From the NCBI RefSeq assembly GCF_053078305.1, contig NZ_CP166879.1: a DNA stretch of 64,000 nucleotides; one strand, written 5' to 3'. Below, piece by piece: positions 36 to 17,868 of this stretch. Position 1 is the first letter of the stretch. The number at the start of each line of letters is the position of its first letter. The notes beneath the pieces were generated by a model. The model was not told where the DNA came from and made no database searches. It saw nothing but the letters and a program-made list of their open reading frames with translations. The translations under genes and the position numbers were made by a program.

Positions 36-2171
36 TTGCTTAATCCGATCGTTCGTAAATTCCAGTACGGCCAACACACCGTGACTCTGGAAACCGGCAT
101 GATGGCTCGTCAGGCTACTGCCGCTGTTATGGTTAGCATGGATGACACCGCGGTATTTGTTACCGTTGTTGGCCAGAAAAAAGCCAAACCAGGTCAGGAC
201 TTCTTCCCACTGACCGTTAACTATCAGGAGCGTACCTACGCTGCTGGTCGTATCCCGGGTAGCTTCTTCCGTCGTGAAGGTCGTCCAAGCGAAGGCGAAA
301 CCCTGATCGCGCGTCTGATTGACCGCCCGATTCGCCCGCTGTTCCCGGAAGGCTTCGTCAACGAAGTTCAGGTTATCGCCACCGTGGTTTCTGTTAACCC
401 GCAGGTTAACCCGGATATCGTCGCGATGATTGGTGCTTCCGCGGCACTGTCTCTGTCTGGTATTCCGTTCAATGGTCCGATTGGTGCTGCCCGCGTAGGT
501 TACATCAATGACCAGTACGTACTGAACCCGACTCAGGACGAGCTGAAAGAGAGCAAACTGGATCTGGTTGTTGCCGGTACTGAAGCTGCCGTGCTGATGG
601 TTGAATCTGAAGCTGAACTGCTGAGCGAAGACCAAATGCTGGGCGCAGTGGTGTTCGGTCATGAACAACAGCAGGTTGTTATTCAGAACATCAATGAACT
701 GGTGAAAGAAGCCGGTAAACCGCGTTGGGATTGGCAGCCGGAGCCGGTAAACGAAGCGCTGAACGCGCGCGTTGCTGCACTGGCTGAAGCTCGTCTGAGT
801 GATGCTTACCGCATCACCGACAAACAAGAGCGTTATGCGCAGGTTGATGTCATCAAATCTGAAACCATCGCAACGCTGCTTGCTGAAGACGAAACCCTGG
901 ACGAAAACGAACTGGGTGAAATTCTGCACGCGATCGAGAAAAACGTTGTTCGTAGCCGCGTACTGGCAGGCGAACCGCGTATCGACGGTCGTGAAAAAGA
1001 TATGATCCGTGGTCTGGATGTGCGTACTGGCGTGCTGCCGCGTACTCACGGTTCTGCGCTGTTCACCCGTGGTGAAACGCAGGCGCTGGTTACCGCAACG
1101 CTGGGTACCGCTCGTGACGCACAGGTTCTTGATGAACTGATGGGCGAACGTACCGATACCTTCCTGTTCCACTACAACTTCCCTCCGTACTCCGTAGGCG
1201 AAACCGGCATGGTCGGTTCTCCGAAGCGTCGTGAAATTGGTCACGGTCGTCTGGCGAAGCGCGGCGTGCTGGCAGTAATGCCGGATATGGACAAATTCCC
1301 GTACACCGTACGTGTAGTGTCTGAAATCACCGAATCCAACGGTTCTTCTTCTATGGCTTCCGTGTGCGGTGCGTCTCTGGCACTGATGGACGCAGGTGTG
1401 CCAATCAAAGCTGCCGTTGCGGGTATCGCAATGGGTCTGGTGAAAGAAGGCGACAACTACGTTGTACTGTCTGACATTTTGGGCGACGAAGATCACCTGG
1501 GCGATATGGACTTCAAAGTTGCGGGTTCCCGCGACGGTATCTCTGCATTGCAGATGGATATCAAAATTGAAGGTATCACCAAAGAGATCATGCAGGTTGC
1601 GCTGAACCAGGCTAAAGGTGCGCGTCTGCATATCCTGGGCGTAATGGAACAGGCGATCAACGCGCCGCGTGGCGATATCTCTGAGTTCGCACCGCGTATC
1701 CATACCATCAAGATCAACCCGGACAAGATCAAAGATGTTATCGGTAAAGGCGGCTCTGTTATCCGTGCCCTGACCGAAGAAACCGGCACCACCATCGAAA
1801 TCGAAGATGACGGTACTGTGAAGATCGCAGCGACCGACGGCGAGAAAGCGAAACACGCTATTCGTCGTATCGAAGAGATCACTGCAGAAATCGAAGTGGG
1901 CCGCGTCTACACTGGTAAAGTGACCCGTATCGTTGACTTCGGCGCATTTGTTGCCATCGGCGGCGGTAAAGAAGGTCTGGTACACATCTCTCAAATCGCT
2001 GACAAACGCGTTGAGAAAGTGACCGATTACCTGCAGATGGGTCAGGAAGTACCGGTGAAAGTTCTGGAAGTTGATCGCCAGGGCCGTATCCGTCTGAGCA
2101 TTAAAGAAGCGACTGAGCAGTCTCAACCTGCTGCAGCACCGGAAGCTCCGGCTGCTGAACAGGGCGAGTAA
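36..2171 (+). CDS. pnp: polynucleotide phosphorylase (PNPase), 711 aa, TTG start
   Basis: Full-length ORF; translation shows RNase PH-like domains plus C-terminal KH/S1 region; TTG initiation codon at 36 as known for pnp. Confidence 0.96.
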
Positions 2172-2183
2172 GGTTGCCATTTG

Positions 2184-2208
2184 CCCTCCGCTGCGGCGGG
2201 GGGCTTTT
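2184..2208 (+). terminator. intrinsic terminator downstream of pnp
   Basis: GC-rich 8-bp stem (ccctccgc / gcgggggg) with 4-nt loop followed by CTTTT. Confidence 0.6.
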
Positions 2209-2279
2209 AACCGGGCAGGACGCCTTGTTAGCAACCGGGAACAGGACGTTCATTCAACCGTGGTCTTCGGGAGTGGGAA

Positions 2280-3164
2280 ATGAAGCCTTTTTTGCGCTGG
2301 TGTTTCGTTGCGACAGCACTTACGCTTGCAGGATGCAGTAATACTTCCTGGCGTAAAAGTGAAGTCCTCGCGGTACCATTGCAACCGACTTTACAGCAGG
2401 AAGTGATTCTGGCACGTATGGAACAAATCCTTGCCAGTCGGGCTTTAACCGATGACGAACGCGCACAGCTTTTATATGAGCGCGGAGTGTTGTATGATAG
2501 TCTCGGTCTGAGGGCATTAGCGCGTAACGATTTTTCGCAAGCGCTGGCAATCCGACCGGATATGCCTGAAGTATTCAATTACTTAGGCATATATTTAACG
2601 CAGGCAGGCAATTTTGATGCTGCCTATGAAGCGTTTGATTCTGTACTTGAGCTTGATCCAACTTACAACTACGCGCACTTGAATCGCGGGATCGCATTAT
2701 ATTACGGCGGTCGTGACAAGTTAGCGCAAGATGATCTGCTGGCGTTTTATCAAGACGATCCCAATGATCCTTTCCGTAGTCTGTGGCTTTATCTCGCCGA
2801 GCAGAAGCTCGATGAGAAGCAGGCTAAAGAAGTGTTGAAACAGCACTTCGAAAAATCGGATAAGGAACAGTGGGGATGGAACATTGTCGAGTTCTACCTG
2901 GGCAACATTAGCGAACAAACGTTAATGGAAAGGCTCAAGGCGGACGCAACGGATAACACCTCGCTCGCTGAGCATCTCAGTGAAACCAACTTCTATTTAG
3001 GTAAGTACTACCTAAGTCTGGGGGATTTGGACAGCGCCACGGCACTGTTCAAACTGGCGGTTGCCAACAACGTTCATAACTTTGTTGAGCACCGATACGC
3101 ATTGTTGGAATTATCGCTCCTGGGCCAGGACCAAGATGACCTGGCAGAATCGGACCAGCAATAG
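2280..3164 (+). CDS. nlpI: lipoprotein NlpI (TPR repeat), 294 aa
   Basis: ORF with lipobox LAGC near N-terminus and TPR-like repeats; synteny after pnp. Confidence 0.93.
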
Positions 3165-3343
3165 CTGACGTACACATCAGCCCGTAATCTTTTTTGATTG
3201 CCATCACCTTAACGGGTGAGGGCGTTGTTGTTCGTTAATACACCTACTTTGAGCCGGTTCACACTTTTCAATGAAAATTGCTGATCAATTTCATGATGAG
3301 TTATGTAGACTGGCCGCCATTAATTTTGAGGCACACGTACTAC

Positions 3344-5233
3344 ATGGCTGAATTCGAAACCACTTTTGCAGATCTGGGCCTGAAGGCTCCTATCCTTGAA
3401 GCCCTTAACGATCTGGGTTACGAAAAACCATCTCCAATTCAGGCAGAGTGTATTCCACATCTGCTGAATGGCCGCGACGTTCTGGGTATGGCCCAGACGG
3501 GGAGCGGAAAAACTGCAGCATTCTCTTTACCTCTGCTGCAGAATCTTGATCCTGAGCTGAAAGCACCACAGATTCTGGTGCTGGCACCGACCCGCGAACT
3601 GGCGGTACAGGTTGCTGAAGCAATGACGGATTTCTCTAAACACATGCGCGGCGTAAACGTGGTTGCTCTGTACGGCGGCCAGCGTTATGACGTGCAATTA
3701 CGCGCCCTGCGTCAGGGGCCGCAGATCGTTGTCGGTACTCCGGGCCGTCTGCTGGACCACCTGAAACGTGGCACTCTGGACCTCTCTAAACTGAGCGGTC
3801 TGGTTCTGGATGAAGCTGACGAAATGCTGCGCATGGGCTTCATCGAAGACGTTGAAACCATTATGGCGCAGATCCCGGAAGGTCATCAGACCGCTCTGTT
3901 CTCTGCAACCATGCCGGAAGCGATTCGTCGCATTACCCGCCGCTTTATGAAAGAGCCGCAGGAAGTGCGCATTCAGTCCAGCGTGACTACCCGTCCTGAC
4001 ATCAGCCAGAGCTACTGGACTGTCTGGGGTATGCGTAAAAACGAAGCACTGGTACGTTTCCTGGAAGCGGAAGATTTTGATGCGGCGATTATCTTCGTTC
4101 GTACCAAAAATGCGACTCTGGAAGTGGCTGAAGCTCTTGAGCGTAACGGCTACAACAGCGCCGCGCTGAACGGTGACATGAACCAGGCGCTGCGTGAGCA
4201 GACACTGGAACGCCTGAAAGATGGTCGTCTGGACATCCTGATTGCGACCGACGTTGCAGCCCGTGGCCTGGACGTTGAGCGTATCAGCCTGGTGGTTAAC
4301 TACGATATCCCGATGGATTCTGAGTCTTACGTTCACCGTATCGGTCGTACCGGTCGTGCGGGTCGTGCTGGCCGCGCGCTGTTGTTCGTTGAGAACCGCG
4401 AGCGTCGTCTGCTGCGCAACATTGAACGTACTATGAAGCTGACTATTCCGGAAGTAGAACTGCCGAACGCAGAACTGCTGGGCAAACGCCGTCTGGAAAA
4501 ATTCGCCGCTAAAGTACAGCAGCAGCTGGAAAGCAGCGATCTGGATCAATACCGCGCACTGCTGAGCAAAATTCAGCCGACTGCAGAAGGTGAAGAGCTG
4601 GATCTCGAAACTCTGGCCGCCGCACTGCTGAAAATGGCACAGGGTGAACGTACTCTGATTGTTCCGCCTGATGCGCCGATGCGTCCGAAACGTGAATTCC
4701 GTGACCGTGATGACCGTGGTCCGCGCGATCGTAACGACCGTGGCCCGCGTGGCGACCGTGAAGATCGTCCGCGTCGTGAACGTCGTGATGTTGGTGACAT
4801 GCAGCTGTACCGCATTGAAGTGGGCCGCGATGATGGTGTTGAAGTTCGTCATATCGTTGGTGCGATTGCTAACGAAGGCGACATCAGCAGCCGTTACATC
4901 GGTAACATTAAGCTGTTTGCTTCTCACTCCACCATCGAACTGCCGAAAGGTATGCCGGGTGAAGTGCTGCAACACTTTACACGTACTCGCATTCTGAACA
5001 AGCCGATGAATATGCAATTACTGGGCGATGCACAGCCGCATACTGGCGGAGAGCGTCGTGGCGGTGGTCGTGGTTTCAGTGGCGAGCGTCGTGAAGGTGG
5101 TCGTAACTTCAGCGGTGAACGCCGTGAAGGTGGTCGTGGTGATGGTCGTCGTTTTAGCGGCGAACGTCGTGAAGGCCGCGCTCCGCGTCGTGATGACTCT
5201 ACCGGTCGTCGTCGTTTTGGTGGTGATGCGTAA
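3344..5233 (+). CDS. deaD: DEAD-box RNA helicase DeaD/CsdA, 629 aa
   Basis: Motifs [20 protein letters not shown] present; start set at MAEFETTF (ATG 3344) rather than the upstream ORF-track start; Arg/Gly-rich C-terminal tail. Confidence 0.94.
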
Positions 5234-14106: not shown

Positions 14107-14121
14107 TTTGAGGGAAAACAT

Positions 14122-14205
14122 GTCGGATGCGGCGTAAACGCCTTATCCGACCTACGGTTTGCATCGTTGTAGGCCTGATAAGACGCGGCAAGCGTCGCAT
14201 CAGGC
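14122..14205. repeat. REP/BIME element pair
   Basis: ggatgcggcgtaaacgccttatccgacctac and gcctgataagacgcggcaagcgtcgcatcaggc palindromic units. Confidence 0.75.
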
Positions 14206-14219
14206 ATTACAAGGGGCTG

Positions 14220-14795
14220 CTATTTAATAAACGTAAACGCCGTAGTTACCCGCTTCACGCCGCTCACCCGGCTGGCAATATCTGCCGCCGCTTTCGCTTC
14301 ACGTTCAGTCACCAGCCCCATCAGGAACACTTCACCGTTTTCGGTGGTCACTTTCACGTTGGACGATTTCACCAGGTCGCTGGTTAAGAGCTGCGAACGC
14401 ACTTTGGTGGTGATCCACGTATCATTAGACGCTTCGCCCAGACCAATCGGCTGGCCCTGACGAATCTCGTTATACACTTCGTTGGCACCGTCTACGCCCA
14501 TAGCAATCTGTTTGGCGCGAGCCGAAAGTTCAGCGTTTGGTGACTGCCCAACCAGCAGCACTTTGCCCTGATAGGCCGTTACATTAATGCGCGCTTCTTT
14601 CTTAATCTGTTCGTCTTTCGACAATGCGCTGTTCACGCGCACTTCCAGGGTACCATCGTCCACCTGGGTGCCGACACTGCGTGGGTCAGTTGCGGCTTTG
14701 GTACCCACAGCAGCGGTACCCACTACGGCAGCGGCAACACAACCTTGCAACAGCAGCGCGGAAATAAGGACTGCGATTGGCGATAATGCCTTCAT
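14220..14795 (-). CDS. dolP: outer-membrane lipoprotein DolP (YraP), dual BON domain, 191 aa
   Basis: ORF with lipobox LLQGC, recognised. Confidence 0.9.
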   Translation of the reverse strand: MKALSPIAVLISALLLQGCVAAAVVGTAAVGTKAATDPRSVGTQVDDGTLEVRVNSALSKDEQIKKEARINVTAYQGKVLLVGQSPNAELSARAKQIAMGVDGANEVYNEIRQGQPIGLGEASNDTWITTKVRSQLLTSDLVKSSNVKVTTENGEVFLMGLVTEREAKAAADIASRVSGVKRVTTAFTFIK

Positions 14796-14804
14796 GTATT
14801 CTCC

Positions 14805-15395
14805 TTAATCATCCTGGTGAGGGAAAAGCGTGTTATCGATCAGATCGCACAGGCAATTTACCGTCAGCATATGCATTTCCTGAATGCGAGCACTGCGATG
14901 CGAAGGGATGCGGATCTCCACATCCTGTGGCCCTAACAAACCTGCAAGTTCACCGCCGTCATAGCCGGTCAATGCCACAATGGTCATATCACGCGTAACG
15001 GCAGCTTCTACCGCTTTTACAATATCGCGGCTGTTGCCACGGGTGGAAATGGCTAACAATACATCTCCCGCATGACCCAGCGCCCGCACCTGTTTTGCAT
15101 ACACTTCATCATGTAAGCGATCGTTGGCAATCGCCGTTAAGACAACATTATCAGTATTTAGTGCAATGGCAGGTAAGCTGGGCCGCTCCGTTTCGAAACG
15201 GTTGATCATGCTGGCAGCAAAATGCTGTGCATTGGCAGCGGAAGTTCCATTACCACAACAGAGGATTTTGTTGCCATTGAGCAGAGACTGAACCAGCGTC
15301 ATGGCCGCACGGGAGATGGCATCCGGAAGCGCCTCTGCCGCCGCAATTTGAGTTTGAATGCTTTCAGTGAAGCAAGCTTTAATTCTTTCTTGCAC
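14805..15395 (-). CDS. diaA: DnaA initiator-associating protein DiaA (SIS domain), 196 aa
   Basis: ORF recognised. Confidence 0.92.
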
Positions 15396-15414
15396 GCTAA
15401 TCCTTAAACCTTAA

Positions 15415-15810
15415 TTATGAGTGGTCATTAAAGGCATCCTTAATCCACTCAACCTCATTCCCGGTGAAGGCTACCACATCGAACCGGCAATCCACAGTAT
15501 CAAAACTCCCATTATGACGCGCGAGCCACAAGCGGGCAGTCTGTAATAATTTGTGTTGTTTGCTGCGGGTCACACTGGCTGCCGCGCCGCCATAAAGCGC
15601 AGAACGGCGGTAACGCACCTCGACAAAAACGGTGGTCCGGCCTTCACGCATTATCAGATCGATCTCGCCGCCACGCTCGTTCACGTTAGCGGCGACAAAT
15701 CGCAGTCCTTTGCCTTCCAGCCAGCGACGCGCTTGTACTTCCCACGCATCGCCGGTCTGTTTGGTGGTTAACTGGCGGGGACTACCTGACCTTGTTGGTA
15801 CTGTAGCCAT
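15415..15810 (-). CDS. yraN: UPF0102 protein YraN, 131 aa
   Basis: ORF recognised; 5' end overlaps lpoA 3' end by 43 nt. Confidence 0.85.
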
Positions 15811-17804
15811 GATAACTTCCTGTTAATCACGCAATCCGGGTTAGCCGTCAGGCTTCCGGTATTACCGTTGATTTCAAAACCCTGAACCTGGCGCATTTGT
15901 GAGAAATGATTTGCCAGCGACCAGGCATCGACGCCCATCGCATACATGCGAGCCAGTGAATAATCGTTATTCACCGCGCTGAGTGCCTGCTGCATTAACG
16001 GTAGATTACCGCCTGCCAGCATCGGGATTTCGCTGTACTGCAAGCCTTCCATCTCCAGTCGGAAATCCGGGCCAGCGGTCCCTTGCGCACTGCGGGAGCT
16101 GGCGTACAGCGTTGCACCGCTCTGGCTACCGTTACGCATGGCGATCATCGGTTTGATAAAAGCGATTTCACCCGGCGTTGCCACAATGTACACCGCATCG
16201 ACACGACCGCCATTATTGGTGAACTGGTCATCGGTTGGCGTGGTTTGCAGCGTTGGATTGTTGGTCGTCATGCCGGAGTCGGTTGTCGCTCTGGGAGTAA
16301 TCGGGGTACCCGTTAAAGCGATACCAGAACCGCCGTTAACACCCGCGCGTAATTCGCTGGTGGAACCAAATTTTTGTTGCAGAACGGTGCCGCCGCCCAG
16401 TTTCTGCCACTCTTGCGCAAACGCATTGGCTACGCGATCGCCCAATGAACTGCGTGGGATCAGCACCAGCGGCGCTTGTTTACCCTGGTCACGAATATGA
16501 CGCGCTGCATCGCGCGCTTCGTCTTCCGGTGAAAGCGCGAAGTAACAAATATTGACGCGATTTTCGATATTCTCCGGCTGGTTCAGTGCCAGTACGTTCA
16601 GCGGAGTGTTGCTCTTCAGCAACTCTTCAACGTTATTTTTCAGCAACGGACCGACCACAATACTCGCGCCATCCTGCTGAACCTGGCTTAAGATCTGGCT
16701 AAGTGGTTGTGATGAGGTATCGTAGATTTTCAGCTCTGCGGATGGATTTGCGGGTGCGCTTACCGCTGCGGTGCTTGTCGCCGGGGCGCTTACAGGCACC
16801 GGCTGGGCTGCAGGCTGTTCACCGGTCAGATCGCTAACCGAGGCTTGTGCCGGGCTGGCAACGCCATCCACGGTTTGCGGTTGAGGTTGTTCTGCTACGT
16901 CTGCGGCAGGTGCGGCAGCTACCTGAGCTGCCACTGGCTGAGTGCCGATATTTTTCGCCGCTTCAAAGCCTTGCTGAATAGTGCGACCAAATACCGCTGC
17001 CTGGCCATTCAGTGGCAACAGCAGGGCGATTTTGTTGGTCGAGGCTGGTTTAAACGCTTTTACGTTAACCAACTGCGTTGGCAGCATTTTCGCGCCCGGG
17101 TTGTTCGGATAACGTTTCTGCCAGTCGGCGATCCCGGCTTTCATCATGTCGGGATCGTTACGGTTATCAAACCAGACGCGCTGCAGATCCAGCCAGCCTT
17201 GCAGAATATTTTCGTCGGCGTTGATCACCAGCGTATTCGCCTGTTCCTGAGTCATGGAGGAGAGCGCCTGCCAGGTGGCATCAATATTCTGCTGTTTTTC
17301 TTTCGCGCCAAGCAGCGGTTCCTGAGCAATTAACGCGCGCAGTAAATCAATGGAAGGACGCCCCTGGCTGGCATCGATTTTTGCCTGCCAGTAACGGGCT
17401 TGCTGGTTTTGTTCTAAATCGGCGGGTGTAATTTTCGCCAGCAAGTTTTGCGCGCCAGCAAAATCTTTCTGCGCCAGTTTAATCTCTACCGCCAGCAGTG
17501 TTTTCTCGCGACGCTGAGAATCATTCAGTTCTTGCGGTAGTTGGTTAAACAACTCAACCGCCTGCCCGGTTTTACCTTCTTTCACCAGTGCACGAATGGC
17601 GAGTAATTGCCAGTTGATCCTGGTATCATCAGAGCTTTGCTGCATCTGCTGAAGATAAAAGGCAGAATCAGCCTGCGCCGTGCCCTGCATATAAGCAGTG
17701 GACTGATCGGGAGTATGGGTGCCACAACCGGCGAAAATCAGGGCTGCCAGAACAACAGGCAGACAACGCGCGGCTTTCAAACGAGAAAATGTTGAGGGTA
17801 CCAT
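15768..17804 (-). CDS. lpoA: PBP1A activator lipoprotein LpoA, 678 aa
   Basis: Start set at [15 protein letters not shown]; lipobox AGCG; Ala/Pro/Gln-rich linker region. Confidence 0.9.
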
Positions 17805-17868
17805 AATGTATCCAGTGATATTTTTTTTACGCAATGCTCAATATTAAATCGGCAATACGGACGACACA

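Follow-up and report, generated by a model that had tools for sequence, protein, structure and literature searches.

The yraN translation-initiation region is probably embedded in lpoA codons at a conserved 43-nucleotide gene overlap in Escherichia coli and its relatives

Introduction

Gene overlaps that carry embedded ribosome-binding sites are a textbook arrangement. [quoted passage not shown] The junction between lpoA and yraN shares these properties; in most ordinary cases, however, the shared length is 1, 4 or 8 nt, and it stays below 30 bp in more than 80% of overlapping pairs (Brown & Wade 2025, PMC12548453), whereas lpoA and yraN share 43 nt. According to the same review, translational coupling is most efficient at spacings of −4 to +3 nt, and in reporter studies a longer overlap lowers coupling faster than does an equivalently longer spacer (PMC12548453). 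Coupling has nonetheless been demonstrated for the lysis genes of phages fr (−38 nt) and MS2 (−50 nt) (PMC12548453). In these coat-lysis pairs, as at yraN, the downstream start lies some 40-50 nt before the upstream stop and is uncovered by a terminating ribosome; expression of lysis depends on termination in the coat gene and, in MS2, also on an RNA structure that masks the start.

Here we describe how the lpoA-yraN junction compares with these systems, using a 64,000-nt stretch of E. coli DNA (hereafter, the window) and related loci. LpoA is a lipoprotein exported to the outer membrane; YraN is a nuclease of the cytoplasm. YraN has been characterized as an endonuclease of single-stranded DNA and a partner of the ComM helicase during natural transformation, in a report that contains no discussion of the E. 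coli lpoA-yraN overlap (bioRxiv 10.1101/2024.02.06.579203).

Results

lpoA and yraN share 43 nucleotides out of frame

The features on which the analysis draws first are as follows, in window coordinates.

15768..17804, minus strand: lpoA, penicillin-binding protein 1A activator, 678 aa (open reading frame [ORF], RefSeq and Pfam LppC)
15415..15810, minus strand: yraN, 131 aa, UPF0102/YraN family, PD-(D/E)XK nuclease fold (ORF, RefSeq and Pfam)
15768..15810, minus strand: 43-nt out-of-frame overlap, read from the sequence and of the same length in 36 of 36 related loci
15808..15810, minus strand: ATG start of yraN, its A being the third base of an lpoA Ser codon (TCA) and its TG the first two bases of a Trp codon (TGG)
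15768..15770, minus strand: TAA terminating lpoA, beginning 40 nt downstream of where the yraN ATG begins
14805..15395, minus strand: diaA, downstream of yraN after a 19-nt spacer
14220..14795, minus strand: dolP, downstream of diaA after a 9-nt spacer

On the minus strand, the yraN ATG (15810..15808) takes its A from the third base of an lpoA serine codon and its TG from the first two bases of the tryptophan codon that follows, and the shared segment runs to the end of the lpoA stop codon (15770..15768). Codon position 1 of yraN thus coincides with codon position 3 of lpoA, the yraN frame trailing that of lpoA by one base, and the overlap is therefore out of frame. For lpoA the segment holds the stop codon, the 13 complete sense codons before it and the third base of the serine codon before those; for yraN it comprises codons 1-14 and the first base of codon 15. 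A first-pass annotation of the window had reported a same-strand, out-of-frame overlap of 43 nt with the yraN start inside the last 14 codons of lpoA. The ORF coordinates and the RefSeq annotation of E. coli agree with that description, and the ATG does fall within the last 14 sense codons.

The arrangement is already known, in that every RefSeq E. coli annotation contains it. An 801-base query is 100% identical to E. coli O145 str. RM9872, where RefSeq places lpoA at 1297-3333 and yraN at 3291-3686 of locus L001, the same overlap, and the region is present in 5424 of 5426 complete E. coli genomes. Among the annotated same-strand overlaps of the window, which measure 1, 4, 7, 8, 11, 11 and 43 nt, that of lpoA and yraN is the longest. 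The overlap is genuine and already annotated, and it belongs to an ordinary class, although it is unusually long.

Both overlapping frames encode real, conserved proteins with Pfam assignments and relatives in the PDB. LpoA matches LppC (PF04348, E = 2.6e-134) in an alignment that reaches residue 672 of 678, and the residues encoded by the overlap align with the Haemophilus influenzae LpoA structures 3CKM and 5KCN. YraN matches PF02021 over residues 24-114 (E = 9.3e-25; 87.2 bits against a cut-off of 23.6), and Glu49, Asp51 and Glu64 are invariant in a 60-sequence family alignment; with the gathering score passed and the conserved acidic residues present, the protein belongs to the UPF0102 group of PD-(D/E)XK nucleases.

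Several minor features of the surrounding region can be recorded here. Taken at its longest, the lpoA ORF starts from a TTG at 17834, 30 nt upstream of the annotated ATG at 17804, and diaA is annotated with a GTG start (15395) 19 nt past the yraN stop. The genes lpoA, yraN, diaA and dolP stand in this order and in one orientation, as they do in Cedecea, Pantoea and Moellerella loci, and a scan of 15300..16500 gave no match to a sigma-70-like promoter or an intrinsic terminator. Further downstream, the dolP-yraQ spacer (14112..14251, both strands) contains three sub-threshold matches to naRNA4 (RF02564; 32-38 bits against a gathering threshold of 59.5) that resemble REP-type palindromic repeats between convergent genes.

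The length of the overlap is fixed in Enterobacteriaceae and Erwiniaceae

A scan of species-representative genomes for YraN returned 80 loci; those from Enterobacteriaceae, Erwiniaceae and allied groups, together with Cedecea-type and Pantoea-type loci fetched separately, make up a set of 36. Represented in it are Escherichia, Citrobacter, Enterobacter, Kluyvera, Lelliottia, Pseudenterobacter, Huaxiibacter, Superficieibacter, Atlantibacter, Siccibacter, Cedecea, Erwinia, Pantoea and Acerihabitans. Every one of the 36 loci has an overlap of exactly 43 nt. The lpoA stop codon is TAA in 34 loci and TGA in two, always at the same distance from the yraN start, which is ATG in 31 loci, GTG in three, TTG in two and CTG in none; upstream of it, the hexamer ACAGGA is present in all 36. 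Both the overlap and the downstream start are thus retained in relatives, as expected of a genuine overlapping pair.

The pairing of lppC/lpoA with yraN extends across Gamma- and Betaproteobacteria, usually in the same rsmI / lpoA-yraN-diaA-dolP neighborhood; these lineages share the gene pair with E. coli but differ from it in the length of the junction. A Pasteurellaceae-like contig has a 1-nt overlap (TAATG), and its YraN tail, MLKRFSTSQKLTTREKG, is recognizably equivalent to the E. coli tail even though it is encoded wholly downstream of lpoA. Spacers separate the two genes in Morganellaceae (27 nt in Moellerella, ~57 nt in Morganella), and Legionella species likewise have gaps at this position. 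Tolumonas has an overlap of 47 nt, made by a longer LpoA tail. Overlaps of 1 or 4 nt appear in several gamma- and betaproteobacterial metagenome-assembled genomes (MAGs), where the calls are automated and less certain; automated choice of starts is unreliable for GC-rich MAGs, and distant junctions were inspected by hand. In one gammaproteobacterium (L090/L091, 2501-2580), gene callers give an lppC-yraN overlap of 80 nt that is due to a long low-complexity C-terminal extension of LpoA; an alternative downstream ATG exists there, and the true extent of that overlap is uncertain.

The 43-nt state occurs in Enterobacteriaceae, Erwiniaceae and Acerihabitans. Since the junction differs by lineage, with a spacer in Morganellaceae and a 1-nt overlap in Pasteurellaceae, the 43-nt state originated inside Enterobacterales. 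The likely course is that ~40 nt were lost at the junction and that yraN then took up a new start further upstream, at the conserved tryptophan codon.

The annotated ATG is the most plausible start of yraN

Three further elements, two of them in lpoA codons just upstream of the overlap, bear on where YraN begins.

15823..15825, minus strand: TAA in the yraN frame, five codons before the ATG, read from the sequence
15816..15821, minus strand: yraN SD sequence AGGAAG, 5 nt before the ATG, formed by lpoA Arg AGG and Lys AAG
15682..15684, minus strand: GTG at yraN codon 43, the next canonical in-frame start, found by sequence scan

The TAA five codons upstream excludes a longer yraN; in 28 of 33 loci (L001-L033), the 'ORFopen' position of the yraN frame lies 12 nt upstream of the ATG. 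A shorter protein is the alternative that the first-pass annotation had proposed, and one that would remove the functional overlap altogether: the start would be mis-annotated, and YraN would begin at an in-frame codon further downstream. Long overlaps are indeed uncommon, as the figure of fewer than 30 shared bp for more than 80% of pairs attests (PMC12548453), and YraN residues 1-14 show little conservation and receive a low-confidence structure prediction. Inspection of the frame, however, shows that E. coli yraN has no ATG, GTG or TTG before codon 43 and that even the first near-cognate CTG is codon 31; in the 36 related loci, the next in-frame start is usually codon 43 or 54.

These positions can be set against the structure of the protein. 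The first invariant residues in the 60-sequence family alignment are Gly20 and Glu24, PDB entry 3FOV aligns with YraN from residue 14, and homology to distant family members begins at about residues 14-20. In the AlphaFold model (mean pLDDT 88), residues 1-10 are coil with a mean pLDDT of 57 and helix 1 occupies residues 12-33. Because Gly20, Glu24 and the bulk of this helix precede codon 31, initiation there or later would truncate the fold. A downstream start would also leave unexplained the selection that, as set out in the next section, acts on the SD and ATG at sites that are silent in lpoA, a pattern not expected of a non-functional ATG. By comparison across species, a mis-annotated start is thus largely refuted already, and we consider it very improbable.

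Experimental reports bear on the start to a limited degree. A yraN mutant was complemented by a plasmid that carried the ORF together with only 40 bp upstream of the annotated start (Murata et al., PMC5828445). The result is consistent with independent initiation; the plasmid was a high-copy, lac-promoter construct and is not a test at native expression levels. The supplements of the TRAINSPOTTER N-terminomics, TetRP and Salmonella riboproteogenomics studies contain no mention of yraN, b3148 or lpoA.

Natural variation touches the SD itself. In some E. coli strains (J6 and TSW4848-W1; L092 and L093), the lpoA AAG codon is AAC at the equivalent of 15816, which changes LpoA Lys to Asn and the SD to AGGAAC; these strains retain the AGGA core and the yraN ATG. 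The same two strains carry a GCC-to-GTC change at the equivalent of 15775, which replaces Ala with Val in LpoA and is silent in yraN (CGC to CGT).

Synonymous variation in lpoA is suppressed over the yraN initiation region

One further feature emerges when the final 330 codons of lpoA are aligned, codon by codon, across 32 species.

15798..15824, minus strand: lpoA codons −18 to −10 (N R K L S W L K/Q Y), a block of low synonymous heterogeneity

This segment is the lowest of 232 eight-column windows, with a synonymous heterogeneity of 0.069 against a mean of 0.41, and all of the lowest windows in the 330-codon alignment fall on lpoA codons −20 to −9. The nine-codon block covers the yraN SD, the spacer, the start codon and the first four codons. 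Among 125 lpoA columns that combine an invariant amino acid with a degenerate codon, six are codon-invariant, a count that, like the others from this alignment of related species, overstates the number of independent events; the SD accounts for two of the six, its neighboring Asn AAC and Arg AGG. In the columns that follow, Lys is AAG in 31 of 32 species, Leu is TTA in 30 of 32 and Ser is TCA in 27 of 29. The arginine of the SD is written with the rare codon AGG in all 32 species, although AGG is used at none of the 379 other arginine codons in the same lpoA segments.

The suppressed block corresponds to the yraN translation-initiation region and roughly to the footprint of an initiating 30S subunit. 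At sites synonymous in lpoA, purifying selection on the ATG and its SD is clear and well above chance. Its localization, together with a start position that is A, G or T and never C, would be hard to explain unless the site works in initiation. One could instead attribute the frozen synonymous sites to some other element within lpoA, such as an RNA motif, a small-RNA target, an internal promoter or a pause site, and a 4-bp mini-hairpin (UAAC-AGGAA-GUUA), whose closing pair shows three double changes, can be drawn over the SD. The hairpin is nevertheless too weak to be stable and is mismatched in four lineages, and the junction has no Rfam match and no promoter-like site. The conserved block, moreover, has the exact composition and spacing of an SD, a spacer and a start, and its start position tolerates A, G and T alone, each of which yields a valid start codon. 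We therefore regard an element other than the yraN initiation site as highly unlikely to account for the pattern.

Regarding the hairpin itself (15811..15825, minus strand; UUAAC-AGGAA-GUUA), we note that its loop could display the yraN SD. In three lineages the closing pair changes from ATT/TTA to ATC/TTG, and a C.A mismatch occurs in four.

Beyond the initiation region the overlap is constrained through LpoA

The protein sequences encoded by the two frames of the overlap differ in how well they are conserved. The final residues of LpoA (...[KQ]YQQGQ[VI]VPAS) are nearly invariant across related loci, and the end of the protein aligns with the solved C-terminal domain of H. influenzae LpoA up to the end of that domain. 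YraN residues 2-14 are variable, mostly by substitutions that leave the LpoA sequence unchanged, and residues 1-14 are predicted to form a tail of low-confidence structure ahead of the nuclease fold. At lpoA codons −9 to −3, silent-site variation is 0.35-0.58, which is the background rate; YraN residues 6-12 therefore add no detectable constraint. The overlap thus belongs to LpoA, and what it encodes for yraN is a dispensable-looking N-terminal tail along with the initiation signals.

A conserved SD within lpoA would allow yraN to be initiated independently

The explanation that we favor, and that we regard as very probably correct, is that the overlap is genuine and fixed, that YraN is made from its annotated ATG and that the ribosome-binding site is embedded in lpoA codons. 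The SD (AGGAAG), the 5-nt spacer and the ATG would lie within the codons for the conserved LpoA C-terminal sequence N-R-K-L-S-W, and selection on these nucleotides would be twofold, for the LpoA protein and for the yraN initiation region; the rare AGG and the neighboring synonymous sites would be frozen because selection acts on both. On the polycistronic mRNA, 30S subunits would initiate at the internal site by direct SD guidance. Ribosomes translating lpoA may modulate this step, through transient occlusion of the site or by preventing it from folding, and tight termination-reinitiation coupling would not be required.

The first-pass annotation had read the geometry as implying translational coupling if the start was correctly placed. 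That implication does not hold: a conserved, well-spaced SD allows independent initiation, and no conserved masking structure accompanies it. The fold of the single E. coli sequence is not unusual (z = −1.84) and leaves the AUG in an unpaired linker, a consensus fold of 17 species reaches a negligible −2.37 kcal/mol with no conserved structure, and an Rfam scan found no element at the junction. Nor does yraN have the −4 or −1 (ATGA/TAATG) spacing typical of termination-reinitiation, as its start precedes the end of the lpoA stop by 43 nt. Because coupling fades with overlap length in the reviewed studies and yet operates in fr and MS2, coupling at yraN is possible and not required. Our search of the literature found no measurement of the effect of lpoA translation on yraN initiation.

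The comparison with the phage genes frames the strongest form of coupling, in which yraN would owe most of its translation to ribosomes that, having reached the lpoA stop, back up ~40 nt, or would be translated only as long as a terminating ribosome holds the site open. The distance of −43 nt falls between those of fr (−38) and MS2 (−50), a ribosome at the lpoA stop would leave the yraN site uncovered, and E. coli has a small hairpin just past the AUG in which positions +3..+8 pair with +26..+31; in other lineages, lpoA and yraN stand at −1 or −4 nt, which are classic coupling spacings. The resemblance to fr and MS2 is nonetheless one of spacing, and does not extend to a start that is unusable independently: where the phage starts are masked and SD-poor, yraN has a conserved SD with a 5-nt spacer and no conserved masking structure was found. 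Strict conservation of that SD points to direct recruitment of 30S subunits, the fold is unexceptional (with its AUG unpaired), the consensus energy of about −2.4 kcal/mol is negligible, larger overlaps cut coupling faster than equivalent spacers (PMC12548453), and yraN is functional from a plasmid without lpoA translation (PMC5828445). We consider obligate coupling of this kind unlikely.

A related idea, which we hold to be similarly doubtful, is that the distance of −43 nt is no frozen accident but itself a selected expression device that acts either through backward re-initiation at the SD-ATG, in the manner of the fr and MS2 lysis genes, or through throttling by ribosomes elongating along lpoA. 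Were this so, the amount of YraN, a protein that cuts DNA, would be tied to the synthesis of the cell-wall regulator LpoA and kept far below it.

Two frames open on the same strand over 43 nt would also permit a programmed ribosomal frameshift that yields an LpoA-YraN fusion, and a database entry of 160 aa from E. coli (P0004) does contain both PF02021 and PF04348. That entry, however, represents 2 member sequences, whereas the standard 131-aa form has 2288. The overlap (15768..15810) has no X XXY YYZ slippery heptamer, its 3′ two-thirds vary freely at sites silent in lpoA and no Rfam frameshift element lies at the junction; furthermore, the two proteins belong in different compartments, LpoA at the outer membrane and YraN in the cytoplasm. 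We judge a programmed fusion to have almost no likelihood. Entry P0004, which is named YraN, presumably reflects a frameshift, or a wrongly called junction, in a single assembly. Elsewhere, Rfam gave a chance-level match to a frameshift element inside lpoA (17396..17464, E = 0.5).

Discussion

Embedding of the yraN initiation region within lpoA codons, the reading that we prefer, would make this junction a clean natural example of dual coding, with the AGG codon and adjacent silent sites of lpoA fixed for the yraN ribosome-binding site. The overlap is mostly of little wider import; its practical bearing is on the recoding of lpoA and on the reading of yraN deletion phenotypes. As to the first, recoding or codon-optimizing lpoA in a way that removes the AGG would be expected to silence yraN.

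As to the second, deletion of yraN from codon 2 onward also takes the last 13 conserved residues of LpoA (15771..15807); because the overlap shares those codons, lpoA and yraN are not separable by simple deletion. In the Keio collection, the scar presumably begins ATG ATT CCG; with such a scar, the lpoA frame would run TCA TGA and end there. The Keio update paper contains nothing on the treatment of overlaps, and a literature search on how the collection handles them gave no useful result. A screen of Keio mutations in an Lpp+21 strain found yraN to be essential as "the only cytoplasmic factor", alongside lpoA, lpoB, mrcA and mrcB, a hit that its authors discounted as a technical artefact (PMC8824477). 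Since deletion of yraN after the ATG removes the LpoA C-terminus, truncation of LpoA may explain the yraN hit in the Lpp+21 screen, and is the simpler candidate explanation for it.
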